A stretch of 64,000 bases of DNA from a virus (IMGVR_UViG_3300024346_000008:64001-128000); one strand, 5' to 3'; positions 38,763-58,017 are shown, counted from the first letter of the stretch. A program made the numbers and translations. The notes: a model not told the origin generated them from the letters alone.

Positions 38763-40646
38763 TCAATCTTCTATATTTTCTATCTCAAACTGTTGACGAT
38801 AATCCATATTAATTCGTTTTACAAACTCTTTAAACATGGATTTACTACGTTCGGGGGTAACTAATGCTCCATCAACAATCATATCTGCGGTTGCTTGCTT
38901 TTCTTTTAAGGTATCCCGCATGTTTTCATCCACTGTACCTTCACACATCATATAATACACTTGGACTTGACCCTTTTGTCCAATACGATGGGTACGGTCT
39001 TCTGCTTGTTCATGTTCCGCAGGCAACCAGCCCATGTCGATAAAGACCACCGTATCAATTGCTTTTTGTAATCCGTCAATGCCCATACCTGCGGCACGTA
39101 AACTAAACAATCCTACCTTTGCTTCCCCAGAGATTAGTTTATCAATTGATGTTTGCCGTACAGTTCTGTTCATTTCACCAGTTAATAATGCTGCTTTATC
39201 TCCATAGTGTTCTGTTAACAATTTTAACGGTTTTATATAGCAACTGAAGACCAATATGGACCTATCATTATCAATGAACTCGTCAATCATTTCAATTAAT
39301 CGTGGTAATTTCTTTTCGATTAAGAATCCCTGCAATTTCGGCATATGTTGAATCGACGGGCGTCCATCCATCTTCCATTTCCCAAACATTTCTTTCAACA
39401 GTTTGTTATATTCACCTTTTTCGTCCTTGGTGAGTTCCACATATAAATCGTTACGTTGCTTATTTGGTAATTCTTTCAATACTTGGTCTTTTTTTCGTCG
39501 AATTACTAAATCTTTTGTACGATCATGTAAATCTTGTAGATTCATGGGTGCCGCACCTTTCCATCCACCATATCGTTGGGTAAAATGAAAGAAGTTATTG
39601 AATCGTTCTTTATCTAAGAAGTTCAATAAGGCAAACGCTTCAATAGGACGGGACATTACAGGAGTGCCCGTCAAGAAAATTGTATATTTTGTTTTTATTC
39701 CGGGGTACTTTCGTCGTTCTTTCCACGATCCCAAAATACTCTTCGCCCGAATGGTTTGTCGGTTCTTTAAATAGGTTGCTTCGTCACACACTAACAAATC
39801 AAAGTTTTGGTCACGTAACCAATGATTGTTTTTGGCAACGGCATCATAATGCGTGATATGAAATTGGTGGTCAAGGTGTCCATCATAGGTTTTACTATCC
39901 CAGATCGTTGCATCCTTTCCAGTGAATTTTTTGACCTCGCGTTGCCAGTTGACGACCACGCTAAGGGGACATACAATAAGGGTCTTCAAGTTATGTAGTT
40001 GGGCATAAGCAATGGCCTGTACGGTCTTGCCAAGACCAGGAGCGTCGGCAATTAGACACCTTCCACCTGCTCTATCGACAAACTGCACACCCACTTTTTG
40101 ATAACCATACAGGTTTAATTTTAATCCTGGTACCGTGAATGTGGTATCTTCTTGTTCACGGATTTCGTCCAAATCTTCCCGTCGTTCTTGTAATTTCCCT
40201 AACAGTTTTTCTGCAGAACTTGACAAGATTGCATTGGGAAATGTTTTCATCATTTTGGGCAACTGTACCGAAGGAAATTCCCATCGTTTATCGTCCCCGT
40301 TCCATTTTCGTCCATCAATTTCGTACTTAAATTGTGCCAGTAATGTTTTATCATACGGCATGACAACGTAGGCCGTTTTTGCATCCTTTAAATGAATGTT
40401 AATTGGGCCGGTTTGTACTTCTTGGGTTGTCTGTGGGATATGTGACAGTTTAGTGCGAGGCAATGATAAGTCACTTATGTCCGCATCAAGTAATGCCCGC
40501 TTAGATGCTTCTACCCAAACTGCGGGCAATCCTGGTGTGGAGGTGATCCATTGTAAATACTGCGGGGCAGACCGTCTTACATTTCCTAACGTCTGCCCCG
40601 TGTATTTACCCCACGTAAAAATTACTTCGTCTAACGACGGATGCAT
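38763..40646 (-). CDS. SNF2-family helicase with HARP-like domain (SMARCAL1-like)
   Basis: DAPGLGKT, DEAT, LTGTP, QAEDRTHRIGQ; RKWNGDDKRWEF; N-terminal WGKYTG...YLQW module. Confidence 0.9.
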   Translation of the reverse strand: MHPSLDEVIFTWGKYTGQTLGNVRRSAPQYLQWITSTPGLPAVWVEASKRALLDADISDLSLPRTKLSHIPQTTQEVQTGPINIHLKDAKTAYVVMPYDKTLLAQFKYEIDGRKWNGDDKRWEFPSVQLPKMMKTFPNAILSSSAEKLLGKLQERREDLDEIREQEDTTFTVPGLKLNLYGYQKVGVQFVDRAGGRCLIADAPGLGKTVQAIAYAQLHNLKTLIVCPLSVVVNWQREVKKFTGKDATIWDSKTYDGHLDHQFHITHYDAVAKNNHWLRDQNFDLLVCDEATYLKNRQTIRAKSILGSWKERRKYPGIKTKYTIFLTGTPVMSRPIEAFALLNFLDKERFNNFFHFTQRYGGWKGAAPMNLQDLHDRTKDLVIRRKKDQVLKELPNKQRNDLYVELTKDEKGEYNKLLKEMFGKWKMDGRPSIQHMPKLQGFLIEKKLPRLIEMIDEFIDNDRSILVFSCYIKPLKLLTEHYGDKAALLTGEMNRTVRQTSIDKLISGEAKVGLFSLRAAGMGIDGLQKAIDTVVFIDMGWLPAEHEQAEDRTHRIGQKGQVQVYYMMCEGTVDENMRDTLKEKQATADMIVDGALVTPERSKSMFKEFVKRINMDYRQQFEIENIED

Positions 40647-40885
40647 TACGCGTCAGTGGGTTCCGTAAGTTCTTCTTCGGTTTTTGGACGAACATATACC
40701 ATACGTTCCATATCCAACTTCCAACCCGCCTCGGGGGTTAATCGAAGAATCTGCATCATTTGTGAATTTGATTCTTGAATCTGCTGCAGTAGTTCTTGTT
40801 GAAACTTTCGTAACAACTGATTGTTTGTTTGAATCAGTTGCTGTAGTGCCAAGGGTACTTCTAATGTTATTTCTGTGTTACTCAT
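40646..40885 (-). CDS. Small Gln-rich hypothetical protein
   Basis: GAGG SD; packed between its neighbours. Confidence 0.7.
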   Translation of the reverse strand: MSNTEITLEVPLALQQLIQTNNQLLRKFQQELLQQIQESNSQMMQILRLTPEAGWKLDMERMVYVRPKTEEELTEPTDA

Positions 40886-41864
40886 ATAATCCTCGTATGT
40901 TTACTTTATTGTCAATCCACTCAAATGTTTTTTTAATCCCTTCGATCAATGGATAATTCGGTTCCCATTTAAGTAGTTGCCGAATTAATTTATTATCGGA
41001 CGATCTTCCCCGAACTCCCAACGGACCATTGATATGTTTAACACTTAACTGCTTTCCAGAAATTTTCATAATTAAATACGCAAGATCATTGATAGAAATC
41101 ATTTCTTCTGATCCAATATTAATCGGTTGCTTTATATCAGATTGCATCAATTTGATTATACCAGTTATGCATTCATCAATGTATAAAAATGATCTAGTTT
41201 GATTGCCGTCTCCCCAAATTTCAATAGTACCTTTATCTGTTGCCATTGAAATTTTTCTACATAATGCTGCAGGAGCTTTTTCTTTTCCACCATCCCACGT
41301 TCCTTCTGGACCATAAATATTATGAAATCGTGCGATCCGACATTCTATACCATAATTTTTATTGTATGCCATGTACAATCGTTCACTAAATATTTTTTCC
41401 CAACCATATTCACTGTCCGGATGTGCAGGGTATGCAGAACTTTCCTCGCAGTTGGGATTTGCTGAATCTAGTTGGTTTTCCTCTGGATATATACAGGCCG
41501 ACGATGCAAAAAATACTCGTTTAACATTTGCTAATACCATTGCTTGTAGTATATTAATATTTATTAACGAAGAGTTTGACATTATATCTGCATCATGTAC
41601 TCCAGTAAATATATAGTTTGCACCACCCATATCCGCCGCTAGTTGATATATTTCATCAATATCGGATGTTATTAATCTAACAACATCCGTTTGATTGCGT
41701 AAGTCCACAATCGTAAATTTATTTGCATTTGTAGTAGAAAATTCTGGATATTTGATATCTGCTCCGATGACATAGTGCCCTGCCTCTCGCAAACGTGTAA
41801 CCAGATGCGATCCTATAAAACCACCTGCCCCACATACTAATATTTTTTTCATGGCAATTACCAA
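40878..41864 (-). CDS. NAD-dependent epimerase, GDP-mannose 3',5'-epimerase-like
   Basis: GAGGFIG, LAADMGGA, SSACIYPE, YGWEK, EKAPAALCRK, GVRGRSSDN. Confidence 0.9.
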   Translation of the reverse strand: MVIAMKKILVCGAGGFIGSHLVTRLREAGHYVIGADIKYPEFSTTNANKFTIVDLRNQTDVVRLITSDIDEIYQLAADMGGANYIFTGVHDADIMSNSSLININILQAMVLANVKRVFFASSACIYPEENQLDSANPNCEESSAYPAHPDSEYGWEKIFSERLYMAYNKNYGIECRIARFHNIYGPEGTWDGGKEKAPAALCRKISMATDKGTIEIWGDGNQTRSFLYIDECITGIIKLMQSDIKQPINIGSEEMISINDLAYLIMKISGKQLSVKHINGPLGVRGRSSDNKLIRQLLKWEPNYPLIEGIKKTFEWIDNKVNIRGLYE

Positions 41865-42613
41865 TATAAAATTATATTGTCTCCGGTAACAGGTACCTCA
41901 TTCATTTCATGACAAGATATTTGTTGTTTAAACTCTACTCTAGATAAACAATCTACGTCATAATAATGGCAGATATTATTATATGTTATATATCCATTCT
42001 TAGAATTTTTTAAAATTTTATCGATGTATGTTTGCTGTATATTACTGGAACATTCCGAAAATGCGTAGTTGCTTATAACAAGATCATATTGATCTACTTC
42101 TAGTTCATCTATGACAGAATATACTACCGTATCATTTTCACCGATATAACGTTTAGACAAATTCAAAGGTTCTTGTAAATCAACTAACTTATATGAGAGT
42201 GGTTTCCATATTTCATTAATCAATTTACATTGTCCCCCATACCCACCGCCAATTTCTATAATTTTTAATCCATCAAGCGATCCAAATAATTGTTCTAATT
42301 CCAATGCAACTTTTAAATATCGCATAGTACTTGGACATATCTGTGAAAACTCTTCGTCATAATCTACCAATGATGGAAATCCCACCAAATCATTTCGTTT
42401 AGATAGTTCTAAACGCTCCGTGGTAAAATTAGAAGCAGCTTTAATCCAATCTATATAAGATTTTCCAATATCTACACTAACGTGTTCTAAAATAGCCGTA
42501 TACACCGAACTTTGTCTAAACCTACGGAATGTTTCGTCATCCGTTGCTGCCTGTTGGCAAAAATTCTTGTAATCATCATAATCACTTATACTTGTTTTCA
42601 TAGTTGAATCCAA
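41858..42613 (-). CDS. Putative sugar O-methyltransferase
   Basis: RYLK, IEIGGGYG, LVDL, ISNYAFSE. Confidence 0.82.
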   Translation of the reverse strand: MDSTMKTSISDYDDYKNFCQQAATDDETFRRFRQSSVYTAILEHVSVDIGKSYIDWIKAASNFTTERLELSKRNDLVGFPSLVDYDEEFSQICPSTMRYLKVALELEQLFGSLDGLKIIEIGGGYGGQCKLINEIWKPLSYKLVDLQEPLNLSKRYIGENDTVVYSVIDELEVDQYDLVISNYAFSECSSNIQQTYIDKILKNSKNGYITYNNICHYYDVDCLSRVEFKQQISCHEMNEVPVTGDNIILYW

Positions 42614-43395
42614 TTGTTACAGTAAATGTCAGTTGTGTCAAAGTGCGAGTATGCGGGGCCAAACCATATTTTTGGGGCAATTACTATTTTATCTGGGTTA
42701 TTGTTTAACCATGCACCCCACCAACTAAACGTACTGTTGGCTATGATATTGTGATCAGACATACTCAGTAAACACATATCAACGCCCTGTTCATTTGACG
42801 TATAATACGCAGTGGGGATATTTAAATTTGTCTTACACCACTCAATATCATCAGAAATAACAATAAACTGAGGGTTCATATTTTCAAAATATTCTACGGC
42901 AGATGCATAATATGTAGGTGAACATAGTGGATGGTGATTTGGTAAATCTACATAATCCCCTCGGCGCACATGTATTGATACTATCGGCCGATCTTTATTA
43001 AGGGATGATATAATGGTAGTTGCTTTTTCAATTATATCATTTTTAAATGTAAATTCTTTTCTAATAAGATCTGAGCAGTGGGTAAAATATTTTTCTGTTT
43101 GGAAATATCCATCGAAATCCATGTTATCCGCAACTTTTTTAAAAAAGAATCTGTCAAAGTGAAATTGCTCTTCAACATATTTTTTATTAGTATGTATTCC
43201 CGCTTCATGGTAAAAATGAGATAATTTGATGTCAAATATATTTCGTATGGAGAAATTATTATGTGACTTACTATCAATATCCTCATCTATTATAACTCTG
43301 TATCCATGCTTATCGCCAACTCCTATTAACATAGCATATTGAAACATTTGGTTTCCCAATCTTCCTTTGCGTCCAAGAACGTTCATGGTTATCAT
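42598..43395 (-). CDS. GT11 alpha-1,2-fucosyltransferase-like
   Basis: GRLGNQMFQYA, GYFQ, HVRRGDY, SDD, NSTFSWWGAWL. Confidence 0.93.
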   Translation of the reverse strand: MITMNVLGRKGRLGNQMFQYAMLIGVGDKHGYRVIIDEDIDSKSHNNFSIRNIFDIKLSHFYHEAGIHTNKKYVEEQFHFDRFFFKKVADNMDFDGYFQTEKYFTHCSDLIRKEFTFKNDIIEKATTIISSLNKDRPIVSIHVRRGDYVDLPNHHPLCSPTYYASAVEYFENMNPQFIVISDDIEWCKTNLNIPTAYYTSNEQGVDMCLLSMSDHNIIANSTFSWWGAWLNNNPDKIVIAPKIWFGPAYSHFDTTDIYCNNWIQL

Positions 43396-44168
43396 AATAA
43401 CTCCAATTGTATATTAGTTGTCGGAACAAACAAAAAATCACAGTCACTTACTTGTGTAATTGCATATCCCAATTCAAGTAACATAGAAAATTTAGCTGAC
43501 GTAGAATCTATACTAACTTTTCCAAAATGATCATCCCAATTTTCCAACATGATCACCGGTTTACATTTTCTAATTGTATTATATGCACCGAGTATAACAT
43601 TTTGTTCATATCCTTCAACGTCTAACTTAATAAAATCCAATTTATCAAAATTAAACATTTCATCGATAGAAACAAGTTCTATCGGAACTCTTTCATCTTC
43701 AGATAAATCAGTTCCTCCAAAATGTAGAGGTATTCCTAGCGGATTATTTATCAGTCCGGCCCCACCAATATTATGCGAAGGAATAAATCCAAAAGAATCA
43801 AATGATTTTTTATCACTTAGACCACAAGTGTATACTGTTACATTATCACAGTTATTAATCTGTAAATTTTCTTGTAATAATTGCGCAGACGGTTTTAATG
43901 GTTCAAAACAATGTACATGCTTTGCTAATTTTGAAAAAAATATTGTATGTGTTCCTATGTGAGCACCCCCTTCTAATACAATAGAATCTTTATTAATATA
44001 TTTTGCAAACGTTTGATGGTTGTGAAGTTCCCAAGAAACTCCTCTTTGTACAACGTCACTGATAATATCACCCTTGAAAGTTTTAAAAAACGCAGAACTT
44101 CCATTACAGTAATTTTTAACTTCGGCTATTTGTTCAGATATTTCATATTTCATATTTCGTTTATCCAT
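43392..44168 (-). CDS. FkbM-family methyltransferase
   Basis: GAHIG, FEP, IKLDVEGYE, PVIMLE. Confidence 0.92.
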   Translation of the reverse strand: MDKRNMKYEISEQIAEVKNYCNGSSAFFKTFKGDIISDVVQRGVSWELHNHQTFAKYINKDSIVLEGGAHIGTHTIFFSKLAKHVHCFEPLKPSAQLLQENLQINNCDNVTVYTCGLSDKKSFDSFGFIPSHNIGGAGLINNPLGIPLHFGGTDLSEDERVPIELVSIDEMFNFDKLDFIKLDVEGYEQNVILGAYNTIRKCKPVIMLENWDDHFGKVSIDSTSAKFSMLLELGYAITQVSDCDFLFVPTTNIQLELL

Positions 44169-45640
44169 TTTGTATATGAGTTAATTAACACATCTTGATA
44201 ATTTTCATATTGCTGTGTTATACTTGAGTGGGAAGGTCGTTGATTAGCTACCAATGGTAATACGGTGTATATATTATGTGAAAGTTGCCTCTGAAGAGCT
44301 AGATAGTGTTGATCAATTGCAAAATATTTTTTCCAATCAAAATTTAAAATTGTATCATAAAAACGGTTCGAGACAATGTATGCGTGTGCACAAAATGCAC
44401 CAGTTAATATTCCTAAATGTGGACTACATTGTATAATAGGTGATATTGCATTTGCCCCCAAGAATAACATATCCCATTTTGGAAGATATGATAACTCCGC
44501 TGCAGCCCTATCCAATATTGGTAACAATCTATTATCAATAAACTTGCAATCATCTTCCAACACCAACACACTATCCCAATTATTATCTTTTGCTCTTTTA
44601 ATGGCTTCTAAATGAGACATAGAACATCCGAACCTAGACTTGGCAACTTTAATGTCTATTTCAGTAAAAATGTTATTACTTTCGTTAATCAGTTGTTCTA
44701 CAACAGAATCTTCGGGAACGTGTGCATTTATTCTTGAAACAGAAATTGGAAGATTTTTAATCTCATGTTTAATCTCCACGTTTCTATCTTCTCTATGTTC
44801 TAAATTTAAATAAAATCCGTTTGACACTATATCAGTGAATGTTTGAACTTCAAATTTTGTGTTAAACTTATAGTTGTATTGGTATATTAAACTATTTGGG
44901 GAAAAATTTTTTAAATCATCTATATCAATAGTTTCCCCGCACAAATATCTGGTAGCTAATGCATATGGATTATATTCAATCAATTGCTCTACATCGTAAT
45001 AATCTACTCGTGCGACAGTATTTATTGCATTTATAAAACACGGTGACACTGGATAAAAATAGTGCGGTCTATCTACTATATCTACCGTTGATGCGTTTGG
45101 AACAAATATTTTACCATAATATTTAAAGTATCCGCTGTTTGGTACTGATTCAAAACAATGTTCCCCGTTTGGTATTTTAAATAAATGTGCGTAGGAGTCT
45201 CTAGTCCACATATGGACTTGACTGAAAAATCTTTCTTCTAGGCCAATTTGTTCTATATTACAACTTTTTTTCTGACGATTTAATCCTTTAAATAAATCTA
45301 ATACACCATCGTCATCAACTTCATATAAATATTTTAAATCAAAGTCTGTTGTAAAAATGGCGTTATCTGGTAAGACTAAATTATATTGGTCATTAACAAA
45401 ATAGTCTTCGATATTAATGTCTATATCCGAAACTTTGATGAAATTGATATATGAAAAATCGTTTCTAAATTTAAATGTTACATCACGGTGAACCCAATTT
45501 TCATGTTCTTCATCATCATATAGTATTGTTATTTTAACGGGAATGTGTGATTGACTAAAGTAAAAAAACGTTTCAAGTAGTGCTCTTGCTTGAAGATCCC
45601 TGTTTTTGGTCAATATTATTAAATTAATTATTTTTTTCAT
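44150..45640 (-). CDS. Two-domain glycosyltransferase: GT-A-like N-terminal domain plus GT25 C-terminal domain
   Basis: C-terminal YLNLEHREDR, GCSMSH, VLEDD, AHAY, ID; N-terminal TKNRDLQARALLET. Confidence 0.8.
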   Translation of the reverse strand: MKKIINLIILTKNRDLQARALLETFFYFSQSHIPVKITILYDDEEHENWVHRDVTFKFRNDFSYINFIKVSDIDINIEDYFVNDQYNLVLPDNAIFTTDFDLKYLYEVDDDGVLDLFKGLNRQKKSCNIEQIGLEERFFSQVHMWTRDSYAHLFKIPNGEHCFESVPNSGYFKYYGKIFVPNASTVDIVDRPHYFYPVSPCFINAINTVARVDYYDVEQLIEYNPYALATRYLCGETIDIDDLKNFSPNSLIYQYNYKFNTKFEVQTFTDIVSNGFYLNLEHREDRNVEIKHEIKNLPISVSRINAHVPEDSVVEQLINESNNIFTEIDIKVAKSRFGCSMSHLEAIKRAKDNNWDSVLVLEDDCKFIDNRLLPILDRAAAELSYLPKWDMLFLGANAISPIIQCSPHLGILTGAFCAHAYIVSNRFYDTILNFDWKKYFAIDQHYLALQRQLSHNIYTVLPLVANQRPSHSSITQQYENYQDVLINSYTKWINEI

Positions 45641-46290
45641 AACGTATTATATTGAGTTTTAATTTGATGAAACTGCTCTGTTGACAAGTATTGCAGAGGT
45701 TTGTGATATCCCAAGGTTCCTAGTTGGAAAATTGTTTCCACACTAAACTGTGAGGCGACATCACGAGGCGCCAATTTTCCAATATTGAAGTCGTGCATTT
45801 TCTCACAGAAAAAAACATCTTCGCCTTTATTATATTCCCATTTGAATCGGTTAAGTACTTCTAACATTATTTCTGGAGTTCTTAGTGATAACCCACCGTT
45901 ACAACAAAATGGATAATATACTGGATGGTTTGTAGGTAACGGTGCCCCAACAAAATCATATTCATAAAATTCTTCAATCCCATTTCGTAAGAGGCCACTG
46001 TCTCTTTGAAATATTAAAATTTTATCGTAGTTGGTAAAATGTTTCCAAAAAAATTGTCCATCTTCGTGCGTTAATAACATATTATATCCATGCACAGTAT
46101 TATCCATCAAAGTTACAGGTAATACATTTACATTCGGTAATAAAGAAGAATACTGGTTGATATATTTATCATCAGTGAATATAAAATATTCAGTATTTTC
46201 TGGTAGATGTGGTACGTGGTTCTGAAACGTACTTACCATATCTTCGAAAAAACGTGTTTCTACGATTGCTGCACATAATTTAACTGTCAT
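45637..46290 (-). CDS. DUF5672-like (GT-A fold) protein
   Basis: IVETR, LIFQRD, YDFVGAP, NGGLSLR, EDVFF, FSVE, GYHK. Confidence 0.82.
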   Translation of the reverse strand: MTVKLCAAIVETRFFEDMVSTFQNHVPHLPENTEYFIFTDDKYINQYSSLLPNVNVLPVTLMDNTVHGYNMLLTHEDGQFFWKHFTNYDKILIFQRDSGLLRNGIEEFYEYDFVGAPLPTNHPVYYPFCCNGGLSLRTPEIMLEVLNRFKWEYNKGEDVFFCEKMHDFNIGKLAPRDVASQFSVETIFQLGTLGYHKPLQYLSTEQFHQIKTQYNTL

Positions 46291-47252
46291 AAATATGAAA
46301 TATCTGGTCTTCCGGTTCTTGCTCGGTCAGATACCTCTTTGGTTTTAAAATTTATCCCCGCATATTTTTCATATTGTTCAATAGTTCGTTCACTTCCAAT
46401 TCCATAAATTCCCATTGGAATTTCATTTGTTTGCATCAAAAGACTTTCTACTCTTTTAATACTTATATTTTGTAAATGACCCATTTCTCGATAATTGTCA
46501 TCTGAATAAACTTTTCTGTATGCTCGGTCATGTTTATGATATGCCATATTTTGTCTTGTAGCATAATGATTATATCCATGTGTAAAAGATCGAACCGCCA
46601 AGGTAATTTCTTCACCTAGAAAAAACATATCTGGGTCATACGGAACATCTCGTATCCATTTACTAGGCCCAAATAAATTACATGCGGTTAAAAAACTATT
46701 TAATTCAGGTTGTTCTATATTATCTCTGACATCAAACATCTGCAACAATAAACTTCCATAAAACTCCGTTGCTCTAGGAACTGCTCGCTTGGAAGAATCT
46801 CCCGCCCATTCATTGTTACCGTCTGGTGGGTTCCACTGAGATGCTGCACACGATAACAGTGCCTTACTATCGTTCGTTTGATAAAATTGATCAATTAAAA
46901 TTTCATCCCAATTCTTAATCACAGACATGTGTGAATCAATTAACCAAAAAAATTTTTCATCTGTGCGTAGTTCAAACGCTAAACTTCTTGCCCAACACGC
47001 TCCCTTTGATTCTTTTGCTGGAACTTTTATTACTTTCATATTTACACCAAATGAAGGAAGTTTATCAACTTCTTCATCGCCACGTTGCCAACAAATACCT
47101 AACGTAATATTTTCCGGGTACTTGGCATTTTTGACAATCGACTCAATTGTATATGAAAGTAATGGATCACGGTAACTTGCTATATTTACAAATATTTTAT
47201 TAGTTGATTGATCTATCATATTGGTAATATCCTTTCCATACGGTTTATCCAT
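46287..47252 (-). CDS. GT60-like polypeptide/Skp1 alpha-GlcNAc transferase (start probably at MIDQS)
   Basis: IFVNIASYRDP, GACWAR, IDSH, WD, PYDP...GEE, FTHG. Confidence 0.87.
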   Translation of the reverse strand: MDKPYGKDITNMIDQSTNKIFVNIASYRDPLLSYTIESIVKNAKYPENITLGICWQRGDEEVDKLPSFGVNMKVIKVPAKESKGACWARSLAFELRTDEKFFWLIDSHMSVIKNWDEILIDQFYQTNDSKALLSCAASQWNPPDGNNEWAGDSSKRAVPRATEFYGSLLLQMFDVRDNIEQPELNSFLTACNLFGPSKWIRDVPYDPDMFFLGEEITLAVRSFTHGYNHYATRQNMAYHKHDRAYRKVYSDDNYREMGHLQNISIKRVESLLMQTNEIPMGIYGIGSERTIEQYEKYAGINFKTKEVSDRARTGRPDISYL

Positions 47253-48472
47253 CCTTTTGATTTTGAATGGGGCCAGAATATATATTTGTAAGGTTTTTTA
47301 ATTGTATTAAATTCTCTCCAAATTTTAATATATTCTTGACTATTTGTTTTTAATTGCTGTATTTCATCTTCCGATACATCTTTCCGATATAATTCCATTC
47401 CATCAATATCTTCAAACGCTGTTACCCATACATCGTAATCATTTTCTGGCACTTCGTTAAATCCAATATCAATACAATGTTTAAAAATCGTAAGCCACGA
47501 CTTTTCGTATTCCTCTTCTACAGAATACTGCGGATTTGGGGGTAATTTATTATCAAGTGTATATTGTTGAACTGCTCGTTTTTTAAATGAGATTCCGGCA
47601 TATTTTTCATATTCATTCAATGTTCTGATAGTACCGAATCCATATTTCCCAAAGTCTATATTCTGAACTTCGCCATCCATACCAAACAATGTTCTATTTC
47701 GTAAATGTGATGTTTTGTTTAGTTCACCCCACGTTGGATCATCGTCCCATTGCTTAGTTCTTCCTTTTCGTGTATATTCATGCCACGCTATAATTTTGTG
47801 TGGATGGAATAAGTCATATCCATGAGTATATGCTCGTGCAGCAATTGATATTTCTTCTCCATGAAAATAATATTTAGGATCGTGCTGAACTTCGTTTGCA
47901 AATTGACCAAGTGTAAATGCAAAATGCGCAGAATAAAATCTTGCGGGAATTGGGCAGTCCAATTCAGCGTAGTTGTCAATACTGGATGGTAGAAAAAATA
48001 CCGCACCTTCTGGAATGAATCTATCAAAATTCATTTTCCATGGCGTTGCTTCTCTACCAGCGGGGTCATTTTCTGGATTAAATGATGATATATAACTGGT
48101 TAGTAAAGGCTTGGCATATCCTTTTTGCTGAAGTTGCTTTACCATAGTAATACATTCTACGTCCCAGTTTTTTATAAATCTATGGTGGGAGTCTAGTTGT
48201 AATGTATATTTTTCATTATTATATAACTGCTGTATCTTATTTCGTGCCCAACAGGCCCCTTTAGATTCTGTAAATGGGATATCTAATATTTTGAATCTAG
48301 GGTCATCCGCAAATTCTTTTAGTGAATCCCACGTATCGTCAACAGAATGTTGCCACGCAATTCCAAATATTAAATTTTTTGGATATTTTGCGTTACTTAA
48401 ACAATCCTTTATCGTTGGAATTAATTGTGGATCACGATATGATGCAATTTGAATAAAAATTGTATTTTTCAT
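47216..48472 (-). CDS. GT60-like polypeptide/Skp1 alpha-GlcNAc transferase with C-terminal extension
   Basis: IFIQIASYRDP, GACWAR, LDSHHRF, HDP...GEE, YTHG, WHEY. Confidence 0.88.
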   Translation of the reverse strand: MKNTIFIQIASYRDPQLIPTIKDCLSNAKYPKNLIFGIAWQHSVDDTWDSLKEFADDPRFKILDIPFTESKGACWARNKIQQLYNNEKYTLQLDSHHRFIKNWDVECITMVKQLQQKGYAKPLLTSYISSFNPENDPAGREATPWKMNFDRFIPEGAVFFLPSSIDNYAELDCPIPARFYSAHFAFTLGQFANEVQHDPKYYFHGEEISIAARAYTHGYDLFHPHKIIAWHEYTRKGRTKQWDDDPTWGELNKTSHLRNRTLFGMDGEVQNIDFGKYGFGTIRTLNEYEKYAGISFKKRAVQQYTLDNKLPPNPQYSVEEEYEKSWLTIFKHCIDIGFNEVPENDYDVWVTAFEDIDGMELYRKDVSEDEIQQLKTNSQEYIKIWREFNTIKKPYKYIFWPHSKSKGWINRMERILPI

Positions 48473-48517
48473 TTATATAACCTTTTATACTAGTGGAAGT
48501 GATTAATATTTAATCTA

Positions 48518-49480
48518 TTAACAACCGTGTGGACATTGTGAATATCCAAATTGAGGACTATCGCATGCTTCACCTTGATACGCTGATACCTCAAAGCACG
48601 GTGCCAACTCACCCAATTCCGGTTGCACTGTACAACATAATGTAATAAGTGGAATTGTATTAGTTGGTGTGTTAGTTGGTGTATTTGTTGGTGTTGGTGT
48701 GTTAGTTGGCGTATTTAGTGGCGTATTTGTTGGCGTATTTGTTGGCGTATTTTGTGGTGTATTTGTTGGCGTATTTGTCGGTGTATTTGATAGAGTTGGC
48801 GTATTAGTTGGTGTATTAGTTGGCGTTGCCGCTAACGGTGTATTAGTTGGCGTTGCCGCTAACGGTGTATTAGTTGGTGTCCGTGTTGGCGTATTGGTTG
48901 GTGTTGCTGCTAATGGCGTATTTGTTGGTGTTGCTGCTAATGGCGTATTTGTTGGTGTTCGTGTTGGGGTATTGGTTGGCGTATTAGTTGGCGTATTGGT
49001 TGGTGTTGCTCCTGGCGGAGTATTTGTTGGTGTATTTGTCGGCGTTGGTGTATTGGTTGGCGTATTAGTTGGCGTTGCCGCTAACGGTGTATTAGTTGGT
49101 GTTGGCGTATTTGTTGGTGTTCGTGTTGGCGTTGCCGTTGGTGTTGCTGTTGGTGTTGATGTTGGTGTTGGCGTAGCTGTTGGTGTTGCTGTTGGTGTTG
49201 CCGTTGGTGTTGCTGTTGGTGTTGATGTGGGTGTTGATGTTGGTGCGGGTACATAACACAAAAAATAATTGCGTGTTTTTGCTGCAATTAATGTATAATT
49301 TACTTCGGTATATCCACTTGGGCACGACGAGGATGCAATTCCCGCTACACCTGGTTGCCCATATGATGCGGTTAGTGCATAGGCAGGTATCAAGCTTGAA
49401 CTGTCGATGGCATTTACCCGACTTGCTGTTGCTGCATAGGAACTAGTAGATGGAATACCAAATGGAAAAAATATACTCAT
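48518..49480 (-). CDS. Mucin-like Thr/Pro-repeat protein with Cys-rich tip
   Basis: About 200 aa of TPT(N/A/S/R) repeats; 6-Cys C-terminus; no signal peptide. Confidence 0.85.
48655..49250. repeat. Degenerate 12-bp/6-bp coding tandem repeats (TPTN)
   Basis: GTTGG(C/T)GTATT(A/T/G) units with synonymous variation. Confidence 0.9.
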
Positions 49481-49665
49481 ACGAACCCAATCCCCGAAGC
49501 AGAAACTGTTCTTGCTGCGGGACCAGTTGGTCCCACATACGTAATTGAAAATTGTGCAAGTGATGCAGATGCAGGTGTTGGACCCAATAAAGTAGTTGCA
49601 TAACTTGCACTCACTGCATATGAACTACTAAATGGTATACCCAACGGGAAAAAACGAATCGTCAT
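49477..49665 (-). CDS. Small virion-type protein, paralogue of the mucin-like protein N-terminus
   Basis: [16 protein letters not shown]. Confidence 0.75.
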
Positions 49666-49674
49666 ATAAATACT

Positions 49675-49917
49675 CTAATCAAAATTACAAATTTCAACAT
49701 ACCCATCCCCTATTCCTGCTTTTAATATTTCATATTGCGCTGCCGTTATTATACACACACTTTTTCCCCGTGACCCTGATTGTGGGAATAATACGATTCC
49801 TGCTGTAGATGCGGATACGACCGATTTAATAAAACTTGCCGAAATTGCGCAAGATGCGGTCACTGCATAGGATGCGGTATATAACGACCCCGAACCAAAT
49901 GGATACACTGATAACAT
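49675..49917 (-). CDS. Small virion-type protein of the same family
   Basis: YPFGSG...TASYAVTAS. Confidence 0.72.
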   Translation of the reverse strand: MLSVYPFGSGSLYTASYAVTASCAISASFIKSVVSASTAGIVLFPQSGSRGKSVCIITAAQYEILKAGIGDGYVEICNFD

Positions 49918-49918
49918 G

Positions 49919-50767
49919 TTAATTTTCTACTGATAGTACGTGAATTGATGCCGTCATATTTTGTGCTCCACCGGCAGTTGCCATACTTTGAAATATATAG
50001 TATAGTTCATTTGTTCCTTTCGGGACTGTTAATGAACTTAATATTGTGCCCATGTCCGATAAATTTGCTCCAATAATTTTTGGAATAAAATATGTTGTTT
50101 CACTTCCTGTAATAATTGCATCAACAATCAACGATTTCATTTGCGATTCCGTTACAAATGACCTATTTTTTTCGGTTGCATCATTGATAGAAGTAGGCGT
50201 ACTATACAATCGTACACGTGCCGCAGTTGCCGTTGCATTTAATGACGCACTTACTAATAAGTAGGTCTTTGGAATTGTAGTATTAACAATTGACCCACTA
50301 AGTATTTGTCCCACACTTAAATTTCCTGTAATATTTGGTAATGATATTCTATTACTCGTACTTATTACTGAATCTTCCAACAAATATGTGTTGAATGTTA
50401 GATTTGGATATTGCCCCGACCCCGTATTATCTACCCGATAATAGGTCAGTTTTGTATTAGCAGGAGTTACTACCCCGTACATCACAGGATCAATCGTATA
50501 GGTACCGACGCTCATTGTAAAATCACCAATCAATGCCACTGAGCTTGAAATATTTGTATTACCAAAATTTCTACTTTGTTCACCCGAATTATTGAGACTA
50601 TCTAACGTATCATATAATCGAACTCTGCATGGGAAATTTGTTTGAATATTAAGCAATGCATAAGCAGACCCCAACTCCACAGACCCCGAACCAATAATAT
50701 CAGTTTGTGTGGTTGTTGATTGTCTGACTAATTTAGCGCCTAATTTAATGTATTCTTTTAATCCCAT
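49919..50767 (-). CDS. Putative structural protein with internal duplication
   Basis: Y.L(L/V)...RVRLY....N...E..R.F occurs twice. Confidence 0.75.
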   Translation of the reverse strand: MGLKEYIKLGAKLVRQSTTTQTDIIGSGSVELGSAYALLNIQTNFPCRVRLYDTLDSLNNSGEQSRNFGNTNISSSVALIGDFTMSVGTYTIDPVMYGVVTPANTKLTYYRVDNTGSGQYPNLTFNTYLLEDSVISTSNRISLPNITGNLSVGQILSGSIVNTTIPKTYLLVSASLNATATAARVRLYSTPTSINDATEKNRSFVTESQMKSLIVDAIITGSETTYFIPKIIGANLSDMGTILSSLTVPKGTNELYYIFQSMATAGGAQNMTASIHVLSVEN

Positions 50768-50814
50768 ATATAATCAGTATAAGTTCTTTAGTATAACTAG
50801 TTCACAGTTATGTT

Positions 50815-51024
50815 TTAATACGTGGTTGTTACCCATGCCGATCCATTCCAAAATTTTACAGGTTTTGTAACCCATGCTGCGCCTGTCCATACTTTCATAG
50901 GCTTTGCCACAAATGCTGCTCCTGTCCAGACTTTAATTTGTCCGGTGGTTCCGCCAGCATCCGCAAGTGAAATGTCAAAGGTACCCGTACCATTATCGCG
51001 GAGTTGAATGTCAAAGACTGCCAT
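50815..51024 (-). CDS. Small fibre-associated protein
   Basis: K(V/F)W(T/N)GxA(W/F)V x3. Confidence 0.7.
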   Translation of the reverse strand: MAVFDIQLRDNGTGTFDISLADAGGTTGQIKVWTGAAFVAKPMKVWTGAAWVTKPVKFWNGSAWVTTTY

Positions 51025-51027
51025 AAA

Positions 51028-52998
51028 TTATGCCGCACTACCAGTGGCCGACCGACCAATTAATACACTACTTTCCTGTGCTTCTGTATATACCATACCA
51101 ACCTTATCATACCACGGAATATTATATGTTCCGTTTCCTGCTCGCGAGGCAGTCCCAATCACTAAATTGTTTGCATCATCGTGCGCAGTAATTACTACCG
51201 TTCCACCGCCACTATTGGTAATAGTGCCCGCAATTGAAGACGTAATAGCATGATAAGTTGCCATCATATACGATTGAAAAATTGCACCGTTGGTGGTACT
51301 TACTTGTAAATTCGTATCATACCGATAATTTCGGGCAGTTTCAATATCTAACCGATTCGTATCTGGGTCTGTTGGCCACCGTTTCATATCATCTCGGGCC
51401 CGTGCAAACATAACAGAGGGTGATATTTCTGCCACACTTTGGTAGATGAAATTGTAGAATGGACGAAATCCCGCTCCTTCACCTTCTCCTGCTTGCACTT
51501 CTCCGAGAAATGCTGCACCAATTGTTCCTGCTGCTGTGCCAAATGGCATTAAAATTAATTGATATCCTGCACCGGTTAACCAATAATTAGTTTCGGGAAT
51601 AATGGGTGTAGTGGTACTTGCTAATTGAACACGCATACCTACCGTAGTCGTAGTCCATCCCGTAACATATGGCGTAATTCCCCAAATTGTCGTATGGTTG
51701 TGGACCCCATCACCATCCGGATGTATATCACTACTATAATTTAAATATAATAACGCGGACATATTGGATGGAATTGTTCCCAGTGTTGTTCCCGTTGCAA
51801 ACCAATCTACAACCAGTTCACTCTCCTTTCCTCTTGCTAATGTCATTCCTGCAACACCGCCAACACCACCCGCATCAATTCTACGCATATGTGTTACTGC
51901 TCCTGCGCGAGGGCTTGCGGCAGCATGCGCATATACACGACTTGCTTGACTTCCTACACGGAAATCAACGCTCATTGCTCCCGACCCTGCGTATGCCGCT
52001 AAAATACCCGATTGTTCTAAGGTAATTGTGCCCGGTTCTTGAATATTGAATTTACGAGAAAATCGTGATTTGTCATTAGTCGTTGAACCTCCACTTAATC
52101 CAGATTCGTCCGTAACAACAACTTGTATACTATTCATAACTCGGGTACTAGTACTATGGTTATATTCATAGGTTACGACCAATACCCCAGAAAAACATGG
52201 CGTTGGTCGTGCGGTTGCCAATGTACATCTTGCTTGTATACTCTGTGCCGCCGCCGTGGAAAACGAGCCCGAAATTGAATCAATTCTCCGATAGGAAATG
52301 TCGGTGTTTAGTGTTGATGCATATGTTAAATCTGCAAACGTGGTAGTTCCACCGTCATATGATACATCCAAGGTAGAGGTAGTAACCACGGAGGCACCAG
52401 TATGTACCAACATTTCAAAAAATATACTTCGGTACACTTTGCTTGCTTCGGGCAGAAATGTATTTAACGCAGGAATTTGACTTGCTAATCCACCGACGTT
52501 CGCATATGCATTTGTTAACGCACCGTTGTTTCCGTCTATAGGTATTTTAACCGTTTTAATACGAGTGGTTGCGGCACTATCATCGTATTCATAGGTAATA
52601 ATAATTTTAGCAGAAGCATTTTGTGTTACGTTTCCTGTGTTTGTTATACCTACGGTGACCGTTTGACTTGTGCCTGTGAAGTTTGTTTGGAAATATGCGG
52701 TGGCGTCACGCAAAAAATGAAAACTTTGATTTTCACCACTATTCGTAATAGTTTGTGTGACCGTGTTTGCACTAACCGCAACTGCACCAATTTGCACGTT
52801 GGTTAATATTGCGGTTGTACTTGCTGCGGCAGCGCCACCATCTTGCGAAGAAAAATCAACAATAACACTGCGAAATGTTCTGCTGGTTGTTTCGGGAATA
52901 TTCACGGTTATTGCGGTAAATGTTCGCAATGTTGCAGATGCCACTGATGCTGTACTTAATGGAAACGCATATTCAATTGTTTTAGTTCGTAATGCCAT
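51028..52998 (-). CDS. Putative receptor-binding/structural protein with repeated beta-sandwich domains
   Basis: Thr/Ser/Ala-rich; KT(I/V)...RS(V/I)...TYEY repeated. Confidence 0.7.
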   Translation of the reverse strand: MALRTKTIEYAFPLSTASVASATLRTFTAITVNIPETTSRTFRSVIVDFSSQDGGAAAASTTAILTNVQIGAVAVSANTVTQTITNSGENQSFHFLRDATAYFQTNFTGTSQTVTVGITNTGNVTQNASAKIIITYEYDDSAATTRIKTVKIPIDGNNGALTNAYANVGGLASQIPALNTFLPEASKVYRSIFFEMLVHTGASVVTTSTLDVSYDGGTTTFADLTYASTLNTDISYRRIDSISGSFSTAAAQSIQARCTLATARPTPCFSGVLVVTYEYNHSTSTRVMNSIQVVVTDESGLSGGSTTNDKSRFSRKFNIQEPGTITLEQSGILAAYAGSGAMSVDFRVGSQASRVYAHAAASPRAGAVTHMRRIDAGGVGGVAGMTLARGKESELVVDWFATGTTLGTIPSNMSALLYLNYSSDIHPDGDGVHNHTTIWGITPYVTGWTTTTVGMRVQLASTTTPIIPETNYWLTGAGYQLILMPFGTAAGTIGAAFLGEVQAGEGEGAGFRPFYNFIYQSVAEISPSVMFARARDDMKRWPTDPDTNRLDIETARNYRYDTNLQVSTTNGAIFQSYMMATYHAITSSIAGTITNSGGGTVVITAHDDANNLVIGTASRAGNGTYNIPWYDKVGMVYTEAQESSVLIGRSATGSAA

Positions 52999-55537: not shown

Positions 55538-55852
55538 CTACGGTTCTGGCGTTGGCTCAGGTGTTGGTTCTGGTGTCGGCGTTGGCGTTGGTTCCGGAGT
55601 CGGTTCTGGCGTTGGAGTTGGTTCCGGTGTTGGTTCTGGTAGATATTCTAATCCCAACGCGTCACATAATTCATCTTCATCCCATGTTGCCTTACCCTTT
55701 ACAACGGCAGCAGCAATTAACGCAGTATCCGATAAATTTGCTTGTGCTTGTAATTGTCCTACATCCGGTACATCGGTATAATAAATAACTTGCACCGCAT
55801 CGGAATTGACATTTTTACTATAATACATTAGGTACTTTAAAAATGTTGGCAT
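55538..55852 (-). CDS. Small protein with a PEPT-repeat tail
   Basis: C-terminal PEPTPEPTPTPEPT...; GAG SD; TATTTATA upstream. Confidence 0.75.
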   Translation of the reverse strand: MPTFLKYLMYYSKNVNSDAVQVIYYTDVPDVGQLQAQANLSDTALIAAAVVKGKATWDEDELCDALGLEYLPEPTPEPTPTPEPTPEPTPTPTPEPTPEPTPEP

Positions 55853-55901
55853 GATATGTCTCTACAAATAAAAGGTTGATACTGACTTATATAAATATTC
55901 T

Positions 55902-56660
55902 TTAAATTCCGAACCGTGACCGTTGTGCGTTAAAATTTTGAAGGATTTCTTGTGGGGACAGACCTCTGTTGTATATAGATACATTCGACAATCTTCCCGT
56001 AAAATAATTTCCAGCAGTATTACGACCAATATTTAAATTATCGGATTGAGTGCCGTATGGTGCACTTTTTGTTATAGTGCCTTGGTCAAGTACACCATTT
56101 ATATAAATTTGTATATCATTTAAATTTGTGGTAGTTGTATTTGTGGTATATACGACGGTGACATGTTTCCAGATATCTGCCAGAGTCATTACCGTTGAAT
56201 TACTTGAATATCTAGTACAACATACGCCTGATGCACCATTTTTAATTTCTGCCTTAAGTGCACTCGCGCTATCAAACAGACTAGGAAACCCCCATCCCCA
56301 TCCACCGGATGTACATCCTTTACTTAAAATATATTGAACATTAAGATTAACGAAGCCGGTCTGAGGCCCTACCCATGCACTTGTTGTAAATGTTGTATTA
56401 GTAAAATCAAATGTCGTGGGATTTTGTATATTTATATACTGAGTTCCTACTGGAGAATTTTCGGCTACTCCTGCAAATTGCAAACTTATCCCAGGTGCAC
56501 TATTATAAACGGTAATATTATTAAGTAAACTTCCACTAGTATTATTTCCACTCAAATCTGTCCATGTGGTACTACCACTAACATATGATTTAGTATTTGC
56601 CGCATCAAGATATACTACTAATCCATCGGTGACTATTTTTGGAGAATGAATAAACGCCAT
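55902..56660 (-). CDS. LamG/ConA-like lectin domain protein
   Basis: IVTDGLVVYLDAAN..SY, WTDLSGN, YINGV, IYNRGLS..EI.QNFNA.R.RFGI. Confidence 0.88.
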   Translation of the reverse strand: MAFIHSPKIVTDGLVVYLDAANTKSYVSGSTTWTDLSGNNTSGSLLNNITVYNSAPGISLQFAGVAENSPVGTQYINIQNPTTFDFTNTTFTTSAWVGPQTGFVNLNVQYILSKGCTSGGWGWGFPSLFDSASALKAEIKNGASGVCCTRYSSNSTVMTLADIWKHVTVVYTTNTTTTNLNDIQIYINGVLDQGTITKSAPYGTQSDNLNIGRNTAGNYFTGRLSNVSIYNRGLSPQEILQNFNAQRSRFGI

Positions 56661-56663
56661 ATA

Positions 56664-57374
56664 TTATACTCCAAATCTGCCGCGAGTGGCGTTAAAGTTT
56701 TGAAGAACTTCGTCGGGAGAAAGTGCTTTATTATAAATTTTTACATTATAAATACTACCACTTAGATACGCGGTTGCGTTGCCTCGTTGACCTATAAAAA
56801 ATGTGTTTGCGTTCACGGTTGCCGCAATAAGGAACGAAGACGCACCTTTATTTGGTGCAGCTATTCCATTAAGATACATTTGATATGTTGATATACCATC
56901 AAACGTTGCGGTCACATGATATATACTTCCAGTGGGTATATTTGCTACTGAATAGTTTACGGGGACGCTCCCTACACTATTCAGTACATAAAATATTCTT
57001 TCTGAATCGGTTGCTATAGCCAATCCCAATTGTACATTTCGTGAACCCGAAGTATATGCTATAATTCTACGGTATGTCGTTGTTAATGCAGACGCAGGAG
57101 TGTCTGTTTTCACCATACACTCCAGTGTAAACGAAGGTGCATTATTAAGTGCAGTTGGATATGAAACATTTACAAAGTCATTCGTTCCATCAAATACAAT
57201 ACTACCACCATTTTCCCCACTAAAGGTTGGTCCGTTTGTTAAACTTCCACTATTATTATTTCCACTTAAATCTGTCCATGTGGTACTACCACTAACATAC
57301 GACTTCCGATTGGCGGCATCTAATGCAAGCACTAATCCATCGGTGACTATTTTGGGACTATATGATGTAGACAT
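56664..57374 (-). CDS. LamG/ConA-like lectin domain protein
   Basis: Same family as 55902; FDGTND, YLNG, IYNKALS. Confidence 0.88.
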   Translation of the reverse strand: MSTSYSPKIVTDGLVLALDAANRKSYVSGSTTWTDLSGNNNSGSLTNGPTFSGENGGSIVFDGTNDFVNVSYPTALNNAPSFTLECMVKTDTPASALTTTYRRIIAYTSGSRNVQLGLAIATDSERIFYVLNSVGSVPVNYSVANIPTGSIYHVTATFDGISTYQMYLNGIAAPNKGASSFLIAATVNANTFFIGQRGNATAYLSGSIYNVKIYNKALSPDEVLQNFNATRGRFGV

Positions 57375-57375
57375 A

Positions 57376-58017
57376 TTATTGACTTCCTTCTATAAGTTTT
57401 CCAACAGGATTTTGTGAAATAATACATAATGATGTTGCATTCGTGGTAGGTATATCTGCTGCAATAAAGTTATCCCCACGGGTTGCACGAACGTTGTCAG
57501 CAATATACATTACCCCAGGTTGCCCAGAAGTATGTGTATTATCCACTATTGATGTGATAAATTGTTTATTTTTATATACAGAAATTACATTTCCAGTTGC
57601 ACGTATTGTTAGTACATCACCCACTGCACTTACCACCCATGTACCGGAGGCCACTTTAACAAACGTACCATTTCCATCACACCGAAGTATTCCTGAATAA
57701 CTTGTATTGAATCCATCAATAGATAATATATATCCCGTAAATCCTACGCCCATTCTAACGCCTGCACCAATGTAATCAAACGCTCCGCGTGTAGTTAAGG
57801 TAAGTGTTGCTTCTTGGTTTGGAGGAAATGTAATTATTTGTGGGTCTACAAAGTTATAACCAGCATTGGTACTAAGTCCCGCCGTATTAGATATAACTTG
57901 TAGAGAAACCCATCCGGCTGCACTAGACGTGAGATAGTTTGACCCTAAATTACCATTTGCTCTATTAAAATTATCAATAAATACATTGGCAGATGCCATA
58001 CTTGCGGATACTGGCAT
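57376..58017 (-). CDS. ConA-like beta-sandwich protein
   Basis: DNFNRANGNLGSN...GNVISVYKN...SGQPG...DNF. Confidence 0.72.
   Translation of the reverse strand: MPVSASMASANVFIDNFNRANGNLGSNYLTSSAAGWVSLQVISNTAGLSTNAGYNFVDPQIITFPPNQEATLTLTTRGAFDYIGAGVRMGVGFTGYILSIDGFNTSYSGILRCDGNGTFVKVASGTWVVSAVGDVLTIRATGNVISVYKNKQFITSIVDNTHTSGQPGVMYIADNVRATRGDNFIAADIPTTNATSLCIISQNPVGKLIEGSQ

Follow-up and report, generated by a model that had tools for sequence, protein, structure and literature searches.

Mucin-type O-glycosylation, the dense attachment of sugars to Thr/Pro tracts that starts with an enzyme of glycosyltransferase family GT27 or GT60, is regarded as a trait of the eukaryotic secretory pathway, and only few cases of glycosylated phage particles are known to us. 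Here, we analyze a locus of nine open reading frames (ORFs) in a 64,000-nucleotide stretch of viral DNA (IMGVR_UViG_3300024346_000008:64001-128000, the whole of which we call the window; nucleotide positions given without a locus or genome name are counted from its first letter). In this locus, a gene for a Thr/Pro-repeat (TP) protein is followed by two GT60 genes, termed GT60a and GT60b, and by a series of putative glycan-building genes. As this pairing of enzyme and repeat is met again in many phages and bacteria, the T4-like environmental phage that carries the locus probably coats proteins of its own with sugars. We assign a probability of roughly 0.6 to the interpretation that the locus is a phage cassette for the mucin-type O-glycosylation of TP stalks in the cytoplasm.

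Family GT60 comprises the Skp1-hydroxyproline N-acetylglucosamine (GlcNAc) transferase Gnt1 as well as the mucin-type polypeptide alpha-GlcNAc-transferases of Dictyostelium and Trypanosoma cruzi, and it is related to GT27 but has no ricin domain (PMC6939170, PMC8724618). The system of the window resembles these protist enzymes in the strongly scoring PF11397 domain, in the DxH metal motif, and in the absence of a ricin-type lectin domain, and it resembles Gnt1 in being soluble and, as predicted, cytoplasmic. Further likenesses are the Thr/Pro-rich, mucin-like character of the acceptors and the presumed extension of the first sugar, which in the Skp1 pathway includes an alpha-1,2-fucosyltransferase step. 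In contrast to the protist systems, the window system is encoded by a phage, with relatives in bacteria, and is predicted to work in the bacterial cytoplasm, GT60a possesses a C-terminal beta domain of about 100 amino acids (aa), there is no prolyl hydroxylase partner in the cassette, and the gene of the putative substrate lies in a single operon-like block with the enzyme genes. The animal GT27 enzymes, which glycosylate dense Thr/Pro tracts, have the nearest solved folds to the GT60a model. However, their sequence identity to GT60a is only 11-17%, and, in contrast to GT60a, which is soluble and has no ricin lectin domain, they possess this domain and are type II membrane proteins of the Golgi.

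With respect to gene organization, the cassette is similar to the clusters for serine-rich-repeat adhesins of Gram-positive bacteria, in which the repeat gene is accompanied by an initiating GlcNAc-transferase (GtfA/GtfB) and by strain-variable extension transferases, and these adhesins are modified in the cytoplasm before display. The serine-rich-repeat systems differ in that their initiator is a GT4 (GT-B) pair, their acceptor is Ser-rich, and export depends on an accessory Sec system. A phage counterpart is offered by the virion-glycosylation enzymes of mycobacteriophages, which, to our knowledge, are not GT60 enzymes. Mycobacteriophage transferases are reported to modify the structural proteins of the phage itself in the host cytoplasm, and a shielding function has been proposed (PMC12619734, citing Freeman et al. 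2023). In these phages, the glycans are placed on C-terminal extensions of capsid and tail tube subunits, and a long mucin-like repeat substrate is not known to take part. In our literature search, no paper was found that links GT60/PF11397 to phages or to TP-repeat proteins.

The TP protein and the GT60 genes

All nine ORFs of the locus (40878-49480) were found on the minus strand at the coordinates assigned to them in an initial annotation made from the DNA sequence (Table 1). In the order of transcription, they encode the TP protein, GT60a, GT60b, a DUF5672 protein, a GT25 fusion protein, an FkbM-family protein, a GT11 protein, a 251-aa protein, and an epimerase. The overlapping starts and stops that had been described are present from GT60a on, where all junctions overlap by 4-37 nucleotides (nt), but not between the TP gene and GT60a, which are separated by a gap of 45 nt.

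The TP protein consists of an N-terminal module of about 77 aa, a 198-aa Thr/Pro/Asn stalk, and, at its C-terminus, a tip of 45 aa that includes six Cys. The stalk, in which 86 Thr, 51 Pro, 27 Asn, only 4 Ser, and 48 TP dipeptides were counted, represents a dense Thr/Pro tract of the kind that characterizes mucin-type acceptors. The pattern TPxxTPxxTP matched the repeat region 24 times, the reversed control pattern did not match at all, and the underlying DNA is an imperfect (degenerate) tandem array with periods of 12-78 nt. The first 30 residues contain one basic residue and no hydrophobic run, so that no Sec-type signal was visible upon inspection by eye, in agreement with the initial description of a protein without signal peptide that carries about 200 aa of TPTN repeats.

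Homologues of the TP protein occupy the same position in two related viral loci, termed L083 (79% identity in the N-terminal part) and L004 (56% identity in the N-terminal module). Two small genes next to the TP gene, coding for 80 and 62 aa, share the start M..FFPFG.P..SSYA..AS with the TP protein at 27-36% identity (alignment A2), and all three genes are kept in L083. This common module may serve for anchoring or oligomerization, and the arrangement of N-terminal module, stalk, and six-Cys tip in the translated sequence suggests an anchored, extended, and tipped appendage. In the L004 homologue (L004:8542-9966, 474 aa), the stalk is interspersed with three modules that are almost identical to one another, measure about 35 aa, and have six Cys each (C-x6-C-x8-CC-x4-C-x10-C), and a fourth Cys-rich module forms the tip.

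GT60a and GT60b match PF11397 with 251 and 178 bits, respectively, compared to a curated cut-off of 21, which places both of them in the CAZy family GT60 on sequence grounds. The motifs by which they had initially been recognized as GT60-like turned out to be real: D94-S95-H96 of the DxH metal site and H231 are invariant in all 36 aligned GT60 sequences, GT60b included, that were taken from the window and from viral loci (alignment A1, which is also the basis of the GT60a model). GT60b is 36% identical to GT60a and lacks the C-terminal domain of the latter (residues ~320-418; 47216-47515). This extra, conserved, beta-rich domain of about 100 aa, which is also missing from the protist enzymes, has the near-invariant aromatic residues W349, F353, W385, F388, W400, and W408. 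More than 7,700 protein clusters are homologous to GT60a. A second GT60 copy was found only in the window phage and in L083 (91% identity of GT60b), so that the two initiators proposed for the system are a property of these two phages, whereas the other loci have one GT60 gene each.

A sequence search with GT60a against the PDB gave no match, and only the comparison of folds was successful. The GT60a model has a predicted local distance difference test (pLDDT) score of 92.2, and Foldseek aligned it to PDB structures with a best E of 2.7e-10 (GalNAc-T2). The listed top 50 Foldseek matches were mostly GalNAc-T2, T4, T1, T10, and T12, PGANT9, and Toxoplasma GalNAc-T3, ahead of TarS, GlfT2, and RmlT. 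With the VIA aligner, which covered all PDB representatives, GalNAc-T1 ranked first (Z 21.0, 283 residues aligned), T. gondii GalNAc-T3 reached Z 19.9, and other, generic GT-A enzymes reached at most Z 16.8. Therefore, the modelled fold of GT60a is nearest to the mucin-type initiators, the GT27 polypeptide GalNAc-transferases, and GT60a combines the features that define the GT60 fold, namely the GT-A fold, the DxH metal motif, the downstream His, and the kinship to GT27. A predicted complex of GT60a (based on A1) with Mn and residues 84-125 of the TP repeat obtained a score of 0.00 in a run without controls, which counts neither for nor against an interaction.

Association of GT60a with TP repeats in viruses and bacteria

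The initial annotation had tied the GT60 initiator functionally to the Thr/Pro-repeat protein and had suggested testing whether GT60 genes stand next to such repeat ORFs in phage genomes more often than by chance. The tie is borne out by conservation in L083 and L004, by local, genome-wide, and reverse enrichment, and by recurrence in bacteria. L083 (80-91% protein identity) contains the same block except for the epimerase gene, and in the relatives L003/L004 the identity is 81% for the SNF2 helicase and 74% for GT60a. Both L083 and L004 keep the order of TP protein and GT60a between g282 and the SNF2 helicase gene. In L004, however, all downstream enzymes are swapped, and a DUF3431 gene, a weakly PLOD-GT-like gene, a gene of unknown type, and an HtrL/YibB gene precede the same SNF2 helicase gene. 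As L003/L004 retain the TP protein and GT60a but replace the rest, the initiator and the repeat protein are, at the level of gene content, a conserved core, and the downstream genes are a variable, swappable island.

IMG/VR contains 185 contigs with GT60a relatives (61-80% identity), and 80 such loci were examined in comparison to 34 GT11-anchored phage loci, with L083 left out of this control set. An ORF rich in Thr, Pro, and Ser was found within 10 kb in 27 of the 80 GT60a-anchored loci but only in one of the 34 GT11-anchored loci (Fisher p 2.4e-4). A stricter Thr+Pro criterion yielded 22/80 versus 0/34, and the reversed-sequence controls yielded none.

At the genome level, we counted matches to a DNA pattern for TPxxTPxxTP, with a threshold of at least five matches per genome. 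This threshold was reached by 10 of the 11 GT60a-bearing genomes (8-52 runs) and by none of the nine genomes without GT60a (p 1.2e-4). Among the carriers, there were 44 runs in the phage of the window, 43 in XacN1, 39 in Xoo-sp13, 52 in CM1, and 0-39 in seven long IMG/VR contigs, whereas five long GT11 contigs and the phages Mel-JY01, S-H34, S-CRM01, and Sf-CH1b, all of which lack GT60a, had 0-1 runs each. The reversed pattern gave 0-1 matches per genome. In the reverse direction, 80 loci (785 kb) were selected by a (TP)5 DNA pattern among 2.9 million viral contigs, and a GT60 homologue was present in four of them, as compared to an expected number of at most 0.06; a fifth (TP)5-anchored locus lies on a contig already known to carry GT60. 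By these sequence counts, the link between GT60a and TP repeats exceeds chance.

When the viral loci were clustered by synteny with a threshold of six common flanking ORFs, they formed 17 clusters, 12 of which were TP-positive, and the lineage of the window was separated from a large family of 64 loci. A threshold of three common ORFs with single linkage merged nearly all loci. In five loci of other lineages, TP-rich ORFs are located directly upstream of GT60a (L047:7228-9942, L077:7207-9939, L058:6891-8405, L071:7061-8503, and L082:6986-8458). These ORFs differ from the TP protein of the window in that they start with a legume-lectin/ConA-like part (SF.Y ... SEGFCLFF ... GG.PG.GLGY), which is followed by a TP stalk of 100-280 aa. 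No Pfam family was detected in these five ORFs, and a Pfam analysis of ten TP-rich ORFs of other loci gave just one fn3 match and one sub-threshold match.

The closest cultured homologues of GT60a, with 48-54% identity, are found in the Xanthomonas jumbo phage XacN1 and in its relatives Xoo-sp13, CM1, and RAS14. XacN1 and its relatives resemble the window phage in having a GT60a homologue and many TP runs (39-52 per genome in XacN1, Xoo-sp13, and CM1). They are unlike it in belonging to a Rak2-like jumbo lineage and in that their GT60a gene adjoins a carbamoyltransferase gene and not a TP gene. The GT60a homologue of XacN1 is ORF334 (51% identity), and several of the 43 TP runs of the XacN1 genome are located, among others, in large ORFs beside tail sheath genes. 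XacN1 is described as having two glycosyltransferases only, ORF328 and ORF334, and its purified virions contain at least two Schiff-stained glycoprotein bands (PMC5852040, Supplementary Fig. S4). The authors of that study did not link ORF334 to TP-repeat proteins or to GT60 (PMC5852040). The combination of virion glycoproteins, a GT60a homologue, and TP runs in XacN1 is suggestive support for TP-directed glycosylation; it is suggestive only, because the stained bands were not matched to proteins.

In species-representative bacterial genomes, 301 loci with GT60a relatives (37-66% identity) were detected, the hosts of which include Saprospiraceae, Gemmatimonadota, Verrucomicrobiota, Acidobacteriota, and Burkholderiales. 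Out of the 301, 80 bacterial loci from many phyla were examined, and an ORF meeting the strict TP criterion was present within 10 kb in 24 of them. In 12 of the 24, the TP ORF was at most 1 kb away from the GT60a relative, a distance range that accounts for just 12% of the flanking DNA. The bacterial TP proteins that adjoin GT60a relatives are diverse (L289:8442-9989, L308:8436-10010, L319:11497-12132, L291:12273-15134, L263:8438-9232, and L268:9224-9964). Inspection by eye indicated that three bacterial TP proteins start with twin-arginine-like signal motifs (RRRFV, RRTFV, and RRQFI), that a Ralstonia TP protein is VgrG-spike-like with a C-terminal (TP)n tail, and that two Gemmatimonadaceae TP proteins are PqqD-like with a TP tail.

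Downstream enzymes and surroundings of the cassette

Table 1. Coordinates of the genes and regions of the cassette and of a further TP-bearing gene in the window
Feature	Position	Strand	Basis and remarks
Two small genes, 80 and 62 aa	49477..49917	minus	Paralogues of the N-terminal module of the TP protein (part in the TP gene: 49235-49480)
TP protein, 320 aa	48518..49480	minus	ORF and translation; candidate acceptor
TP repeat region, residues 78-275	48656..49249	minus	TPTN/TPTA/TPLAA units
GT60a, 418 aa	47216..48472	minus	PF11397, E 2.9e-74; predicted initiating polypeptide N-acetylhexosamine (HexNAc) transferase
GT60b, 321 aa	46287..47252	minus	PF11397, E 3.9e-52; second paralogue
DUF5672 protein, 217 aa	45637..46290	minus	Pfam E 1.2e-28; putative glycan role, assumed from context; L083 homologue 81%
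Two-domain transferase, 496 aa	44150..45640	minus	N-terminal GT2-like GT-A and C-terminal GT25
FkbM-family methyltransferase, 258 aa	43392..44168	minus	PF05050, E 3.2e-17; phrog_8156, E 9e-29
GT11 transferase, 265 aa (alpha-1,2-fucosyltransferase family)	42598..43395	minus	PF01531, E 2.5e-31; phrog_2644, E 8.5e-81
Class I S-adenosylmethionine (SAM)-dependent methyltransferase fold, 251 aa	41858..42613	minus	Predicted model and fold matches
GDP-mannose 3,5-epimerase homologue (short-chain dehydrogenase/reductase, SDR), 328 aa	40878..41864	minus	PDB 2c59, E 1.5e-103, residues 7-321
104-aa ORF with short TP/EP-rich tail	55538..55852	minus	Pattern matches at genome 119548-119612; possible further acceptor

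The families initially assigned to the DUF5672, FkbM, and GT11 proteins agree with Pfam matches, and the GT11 match extends over nearly the full model (109.5 bits, positions 32-296 of 298). The proposed fusion of a GT-A domain with GT25 was also recovered. Its GT25 match (PF01755) covers residues 276-371 only and model positions 5-104 of 199 (E 1.5e-9; 38.5 bits at a cut-off of 24), and residues 1-250 resemble GT2-type GT-A folds only through structure matches to GT2 clusters in the ESM Atlas, with template modelling scores of 0.52-0.61.

The 251-aa protein, for which a sugar O-methyltransferase function had been proposed, has no match in Pfam. Its AlphaFold model (pLDDT 81.6) has top PDB fold matches that are all class I SAM methyltransferases, and its motif IEIGGGYGG is invariant. 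The methyltransferase part of the proposal is thus retained, whereas no match supports a sugar as the substrate: the label is not backed by Pfam, and the fold indicates only the class of SAM methyltransferases.

The identification of the last gene as GDP-mannose 3,5-epimerase-like is in line with its PDB match (Table 1), and the runner-up class, UDP-glucuronate decarboxylase, followed with an E of 2.7e-32, which is about seventy orders of magnitude worse. This gene is the one that is missing from the otherwise collinear L083. Epimerase homologues with 53-63% identity stand beside two or three GT11 paralogues in at least eight phage loci that contain neither GT60 nor TP repeats (L084, L085, L089-L091, L094, L097, and L098). 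Gene content in phages thus suggests a separate L-galactose/GT11 module.

The window belongs to a single 163,934-bp phage contig, of which it covers bases 64001-128000. On it, there are T4-type replication genes, genes for terminase, portal, and tail sheath proteins, and a tRNA array. According to its DNA polymerase, the nearest cultured relative is the Microcystis phage Mel-JY01, with an identity of only 45%, and a megablast search with the cassette against cultured phages gave no match. The cassette is flanked on its upstream side by orphan genes and by ConA/Laminin-G-like, fibre-type genes, and on its downstream side by an SNF2 helicase gene, a baseplate-hub-like gene, and a tape-measure-like gene. 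In the interval from 40000 to 51500, scans for promoters and terminators gave the same result as shuffled sequence, and no minus-strand terminator was called in the gap from the TP gene to GT60a. Across the window, TATAAATA, the motif of T4 late promoters, is not over-represented. The octamer TATTTATA is found on the minus strand directly 5' of four minus-strand gene starts (3967-3974, 26603-26610, 49665-49672, and 55890-55897), one of which belongs to the 62-aa gene located before the TP protein. In the whole window, TATTTATA has 10 matches at 9.4 expected and thus is not enriched.

Apart from the TP gene, two more genes of the genome carry TP runs and are candidates for further substrates. 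One is the 104-aa ORF listed in Table 1. The other is a second TPTN/TPTA repeat gene, located outside the window and ended by the contig end (G000:C1:163228-163932, corresponding to L239:15226-15933, minus strand). It lies upstream of the genes for a 1508-aa polyvalent protein and the terminase, and its product ends in another type of C-terminal domain, which comprises about 125 aa and had no PHROG or Pfam match. As the contig end cuts this gene, the assembly probably broke inside its repeat.

Four tandem paralogous genes (55902-58760, minus strand) encode proteins of 213-252 aa, one of which scores as Laminin_G_3/ConA-like (E 2.3e-20). A PHROG family annotated as virion structural protein is matched at its C-terminus by three of these proteins, and the 213-aa protein matches another family only weakly. 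From their sequences, these paralogues are probably interchangeable receptor-binding tips. A gene at 26642-27508 (minus strand) matches a PHROG family annotated as UDP-glucose dehydrogenase (E 5e-46) and thus is a nucleotide-sugar gene outside of the cassette.

Proposed pathway and alternative explanations

With regard to acceptor residue, donor sugars, reaction order, virion location, and biological role, we infer the following pathway. During infection, GT60a, as a soluble, retaining GT-A enzyme, would add the first sugar to many Thr of the TP repeat. By analogy to the family, this sugar would be a HexNAc, most likely alpha-GlcNAc derived from the UDP-GlcNAc of the host. The acceptor would be the protein that is encoded directly upstream of GT60a, and probably other TP-bearing phage proteins would be modified as well. 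GT60b could occupy more sites on the same acceptor and thereby raise the density, or it could serve a second acceptor. Going by their family names, the GT2-like/GT25 fusion, the DUF5672 protein, and the GT11 enzyme would extend the chain, and the two methyltransferases would cap the glycan. GT11 would receive its donor, GDP-L-galactose or GDP-L-gulose, from the reaction of the phage epimerase. The O-methylated Fuc (or L-Gal)-Gal-GlcNAc chain on a virion appendage and the parallel between gene order and reaction order, both of which had initially been proposed, are hypothetical. The extension set would be a swappable module that differs among related phages. The outcome would be a stalk of the glycan bottle-brush type, stiff and resistant to proteases, with a six-Cys tip and with the N-terminal module that is common to the two small neighbour proteins. 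Probably, the particle would expose this stalk on its surface and use it in adhesion or as a shield.

It could be argued that the glycan of the cassette is built on some other target, either another virion protein (in mycobacteriophages, capsid and tail tube are modified) or an envelope glycan of the host that is remodelled in the course of infection, namely lipopolysaccharide (LPS), extracellular polysaccharide, or S-layer, and that the TP stalk is an unmodified, extended linker, which is a neighbour only because both occupy a shared variable structural region. Genes for GT11, GT25, FkbM, and epimerase are typical of LPS/O-antigen clusters, and the island is situated at a variable site that extends from structural genes to the SNF2 helicase gene. 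In addition, 34 phage loci that have neither GT60 nor TP repeats contain modules of GT11 and epimerase, and because such modules are common, the extension enzymes in particular may act on some other acceptor. We nevertheless regard another target for the cassette as less likely, since it would leave unexplained why TP ORFs track GT60a and not GT11, and since no fewer than 12 synteny contexts show the pairing, which in bacteria involves neighbouring genes. Moreover, the GT60a fold is nearest to polypeptide transferases, and the characterized GT60 enzymes all act on proteins.

The chemistry could also follow that of Skp1, with the Pro residues of the repeat being hydroxylated first and GT60a then adding GlcNAc to hydroxyproline. 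Gnt1, the best-studied cytoplasmic GT60 enzyme, is indeed hydroxyproline-specific (PMC6939170), and the 51 Pro of the repeat would offer many sites. However, the repeat has more Thr than Pro, Thr/Ser is the acceptor of the mucin-type GT60 enzymes known from Dictyostelium and T. cruzi, and the 164-kb genome, which is about 90% complete, yielded no 2-oxoglutarate-Fe(II) oxygenase with a PF13640 or PF03171 domain. Because these oxygenases are missing, Thr is favoured over hydroxyproline as the acceptor, and the hydroxyproline route appears quite improbable. Still less credence can be given to a role of the transferases in glycosylating a hypermodified base of the phage DNA. Phage glycosyltransferases often do modify DNA (PMC12619734), but the cassette contains no hydroxymethylase or base-modifying gene, GT60a is like polypeptide transferases and unlike DNA glycosyltransferases, and the link to TP repeats would be left without explanation.

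Several observations weigh against a mucin-type cassette that acts on TP stalks. Throughout the phage family, the evidence for the cassette consists of genes, predicted folds, and co-occurrence. Shared ancestry confounds this co-occurrence and is only partly controlled, as 64 of the 80 viral loci represent one syntenic family, in most loci of which the TP genes are far from GT60a, and as three cultured GT60a carriers are related to one another. One GT60a-bearing contig (G012, 54% complete) has no TP run, and the Schiff-stained bands of XacN1 are not assigned to any protein. The TP protein itself yielded no recognizable virion domain by PHROG, Pfam, homologue search, or the ESM Atlas. PHROG and Pfam gave a low-complexity match only and no family, no homologue was retrieved with its first 82 residues, and the feature search in the ESM Atlas gave no usable match, with a poor model of the protein itself (pLDDT 0.36). 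The hint to the virion thus comes only from the position of its gene among tail and fibre-like genes.

Beyond the phage of the window, the data raise the possibility, to which we give slightly less than even odds, that GT60a-type enzymes and Thr/Pro-repeat proteins constitute a widespread, hitherto undescribed prokaryotic system for mucin-type O-glycosylation in the bacterial cytoplasm. Such a system would be present in thousands of environmental phages and in bacteria of many phyla, and in the phages it would serve to equip their own adhesins with stalks of the glycan bottle-brush type. There might be an evolutionary relationship of the prokaryotic GT60a family to the GT60/GT27 initiators of eukaryotes. 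If the cassette functions as proposed here, a compact and swappable set of genes enables an abundant group of environmental phages, as well as many bacteria, to produce mucin-like glycoproteins in the cytoplasm, and the long TP linkers that are scattered through large phage genomes would find an explanation. It would change the view of phage surface chemistry, of host adhesion, and of immune or defence shielding, it would offer a small toolkit for the production of mucin-like glycoproteins in bacteria, and it would provide a testable prokaryotic counterpart for the origin of the eukaryotic initiators.

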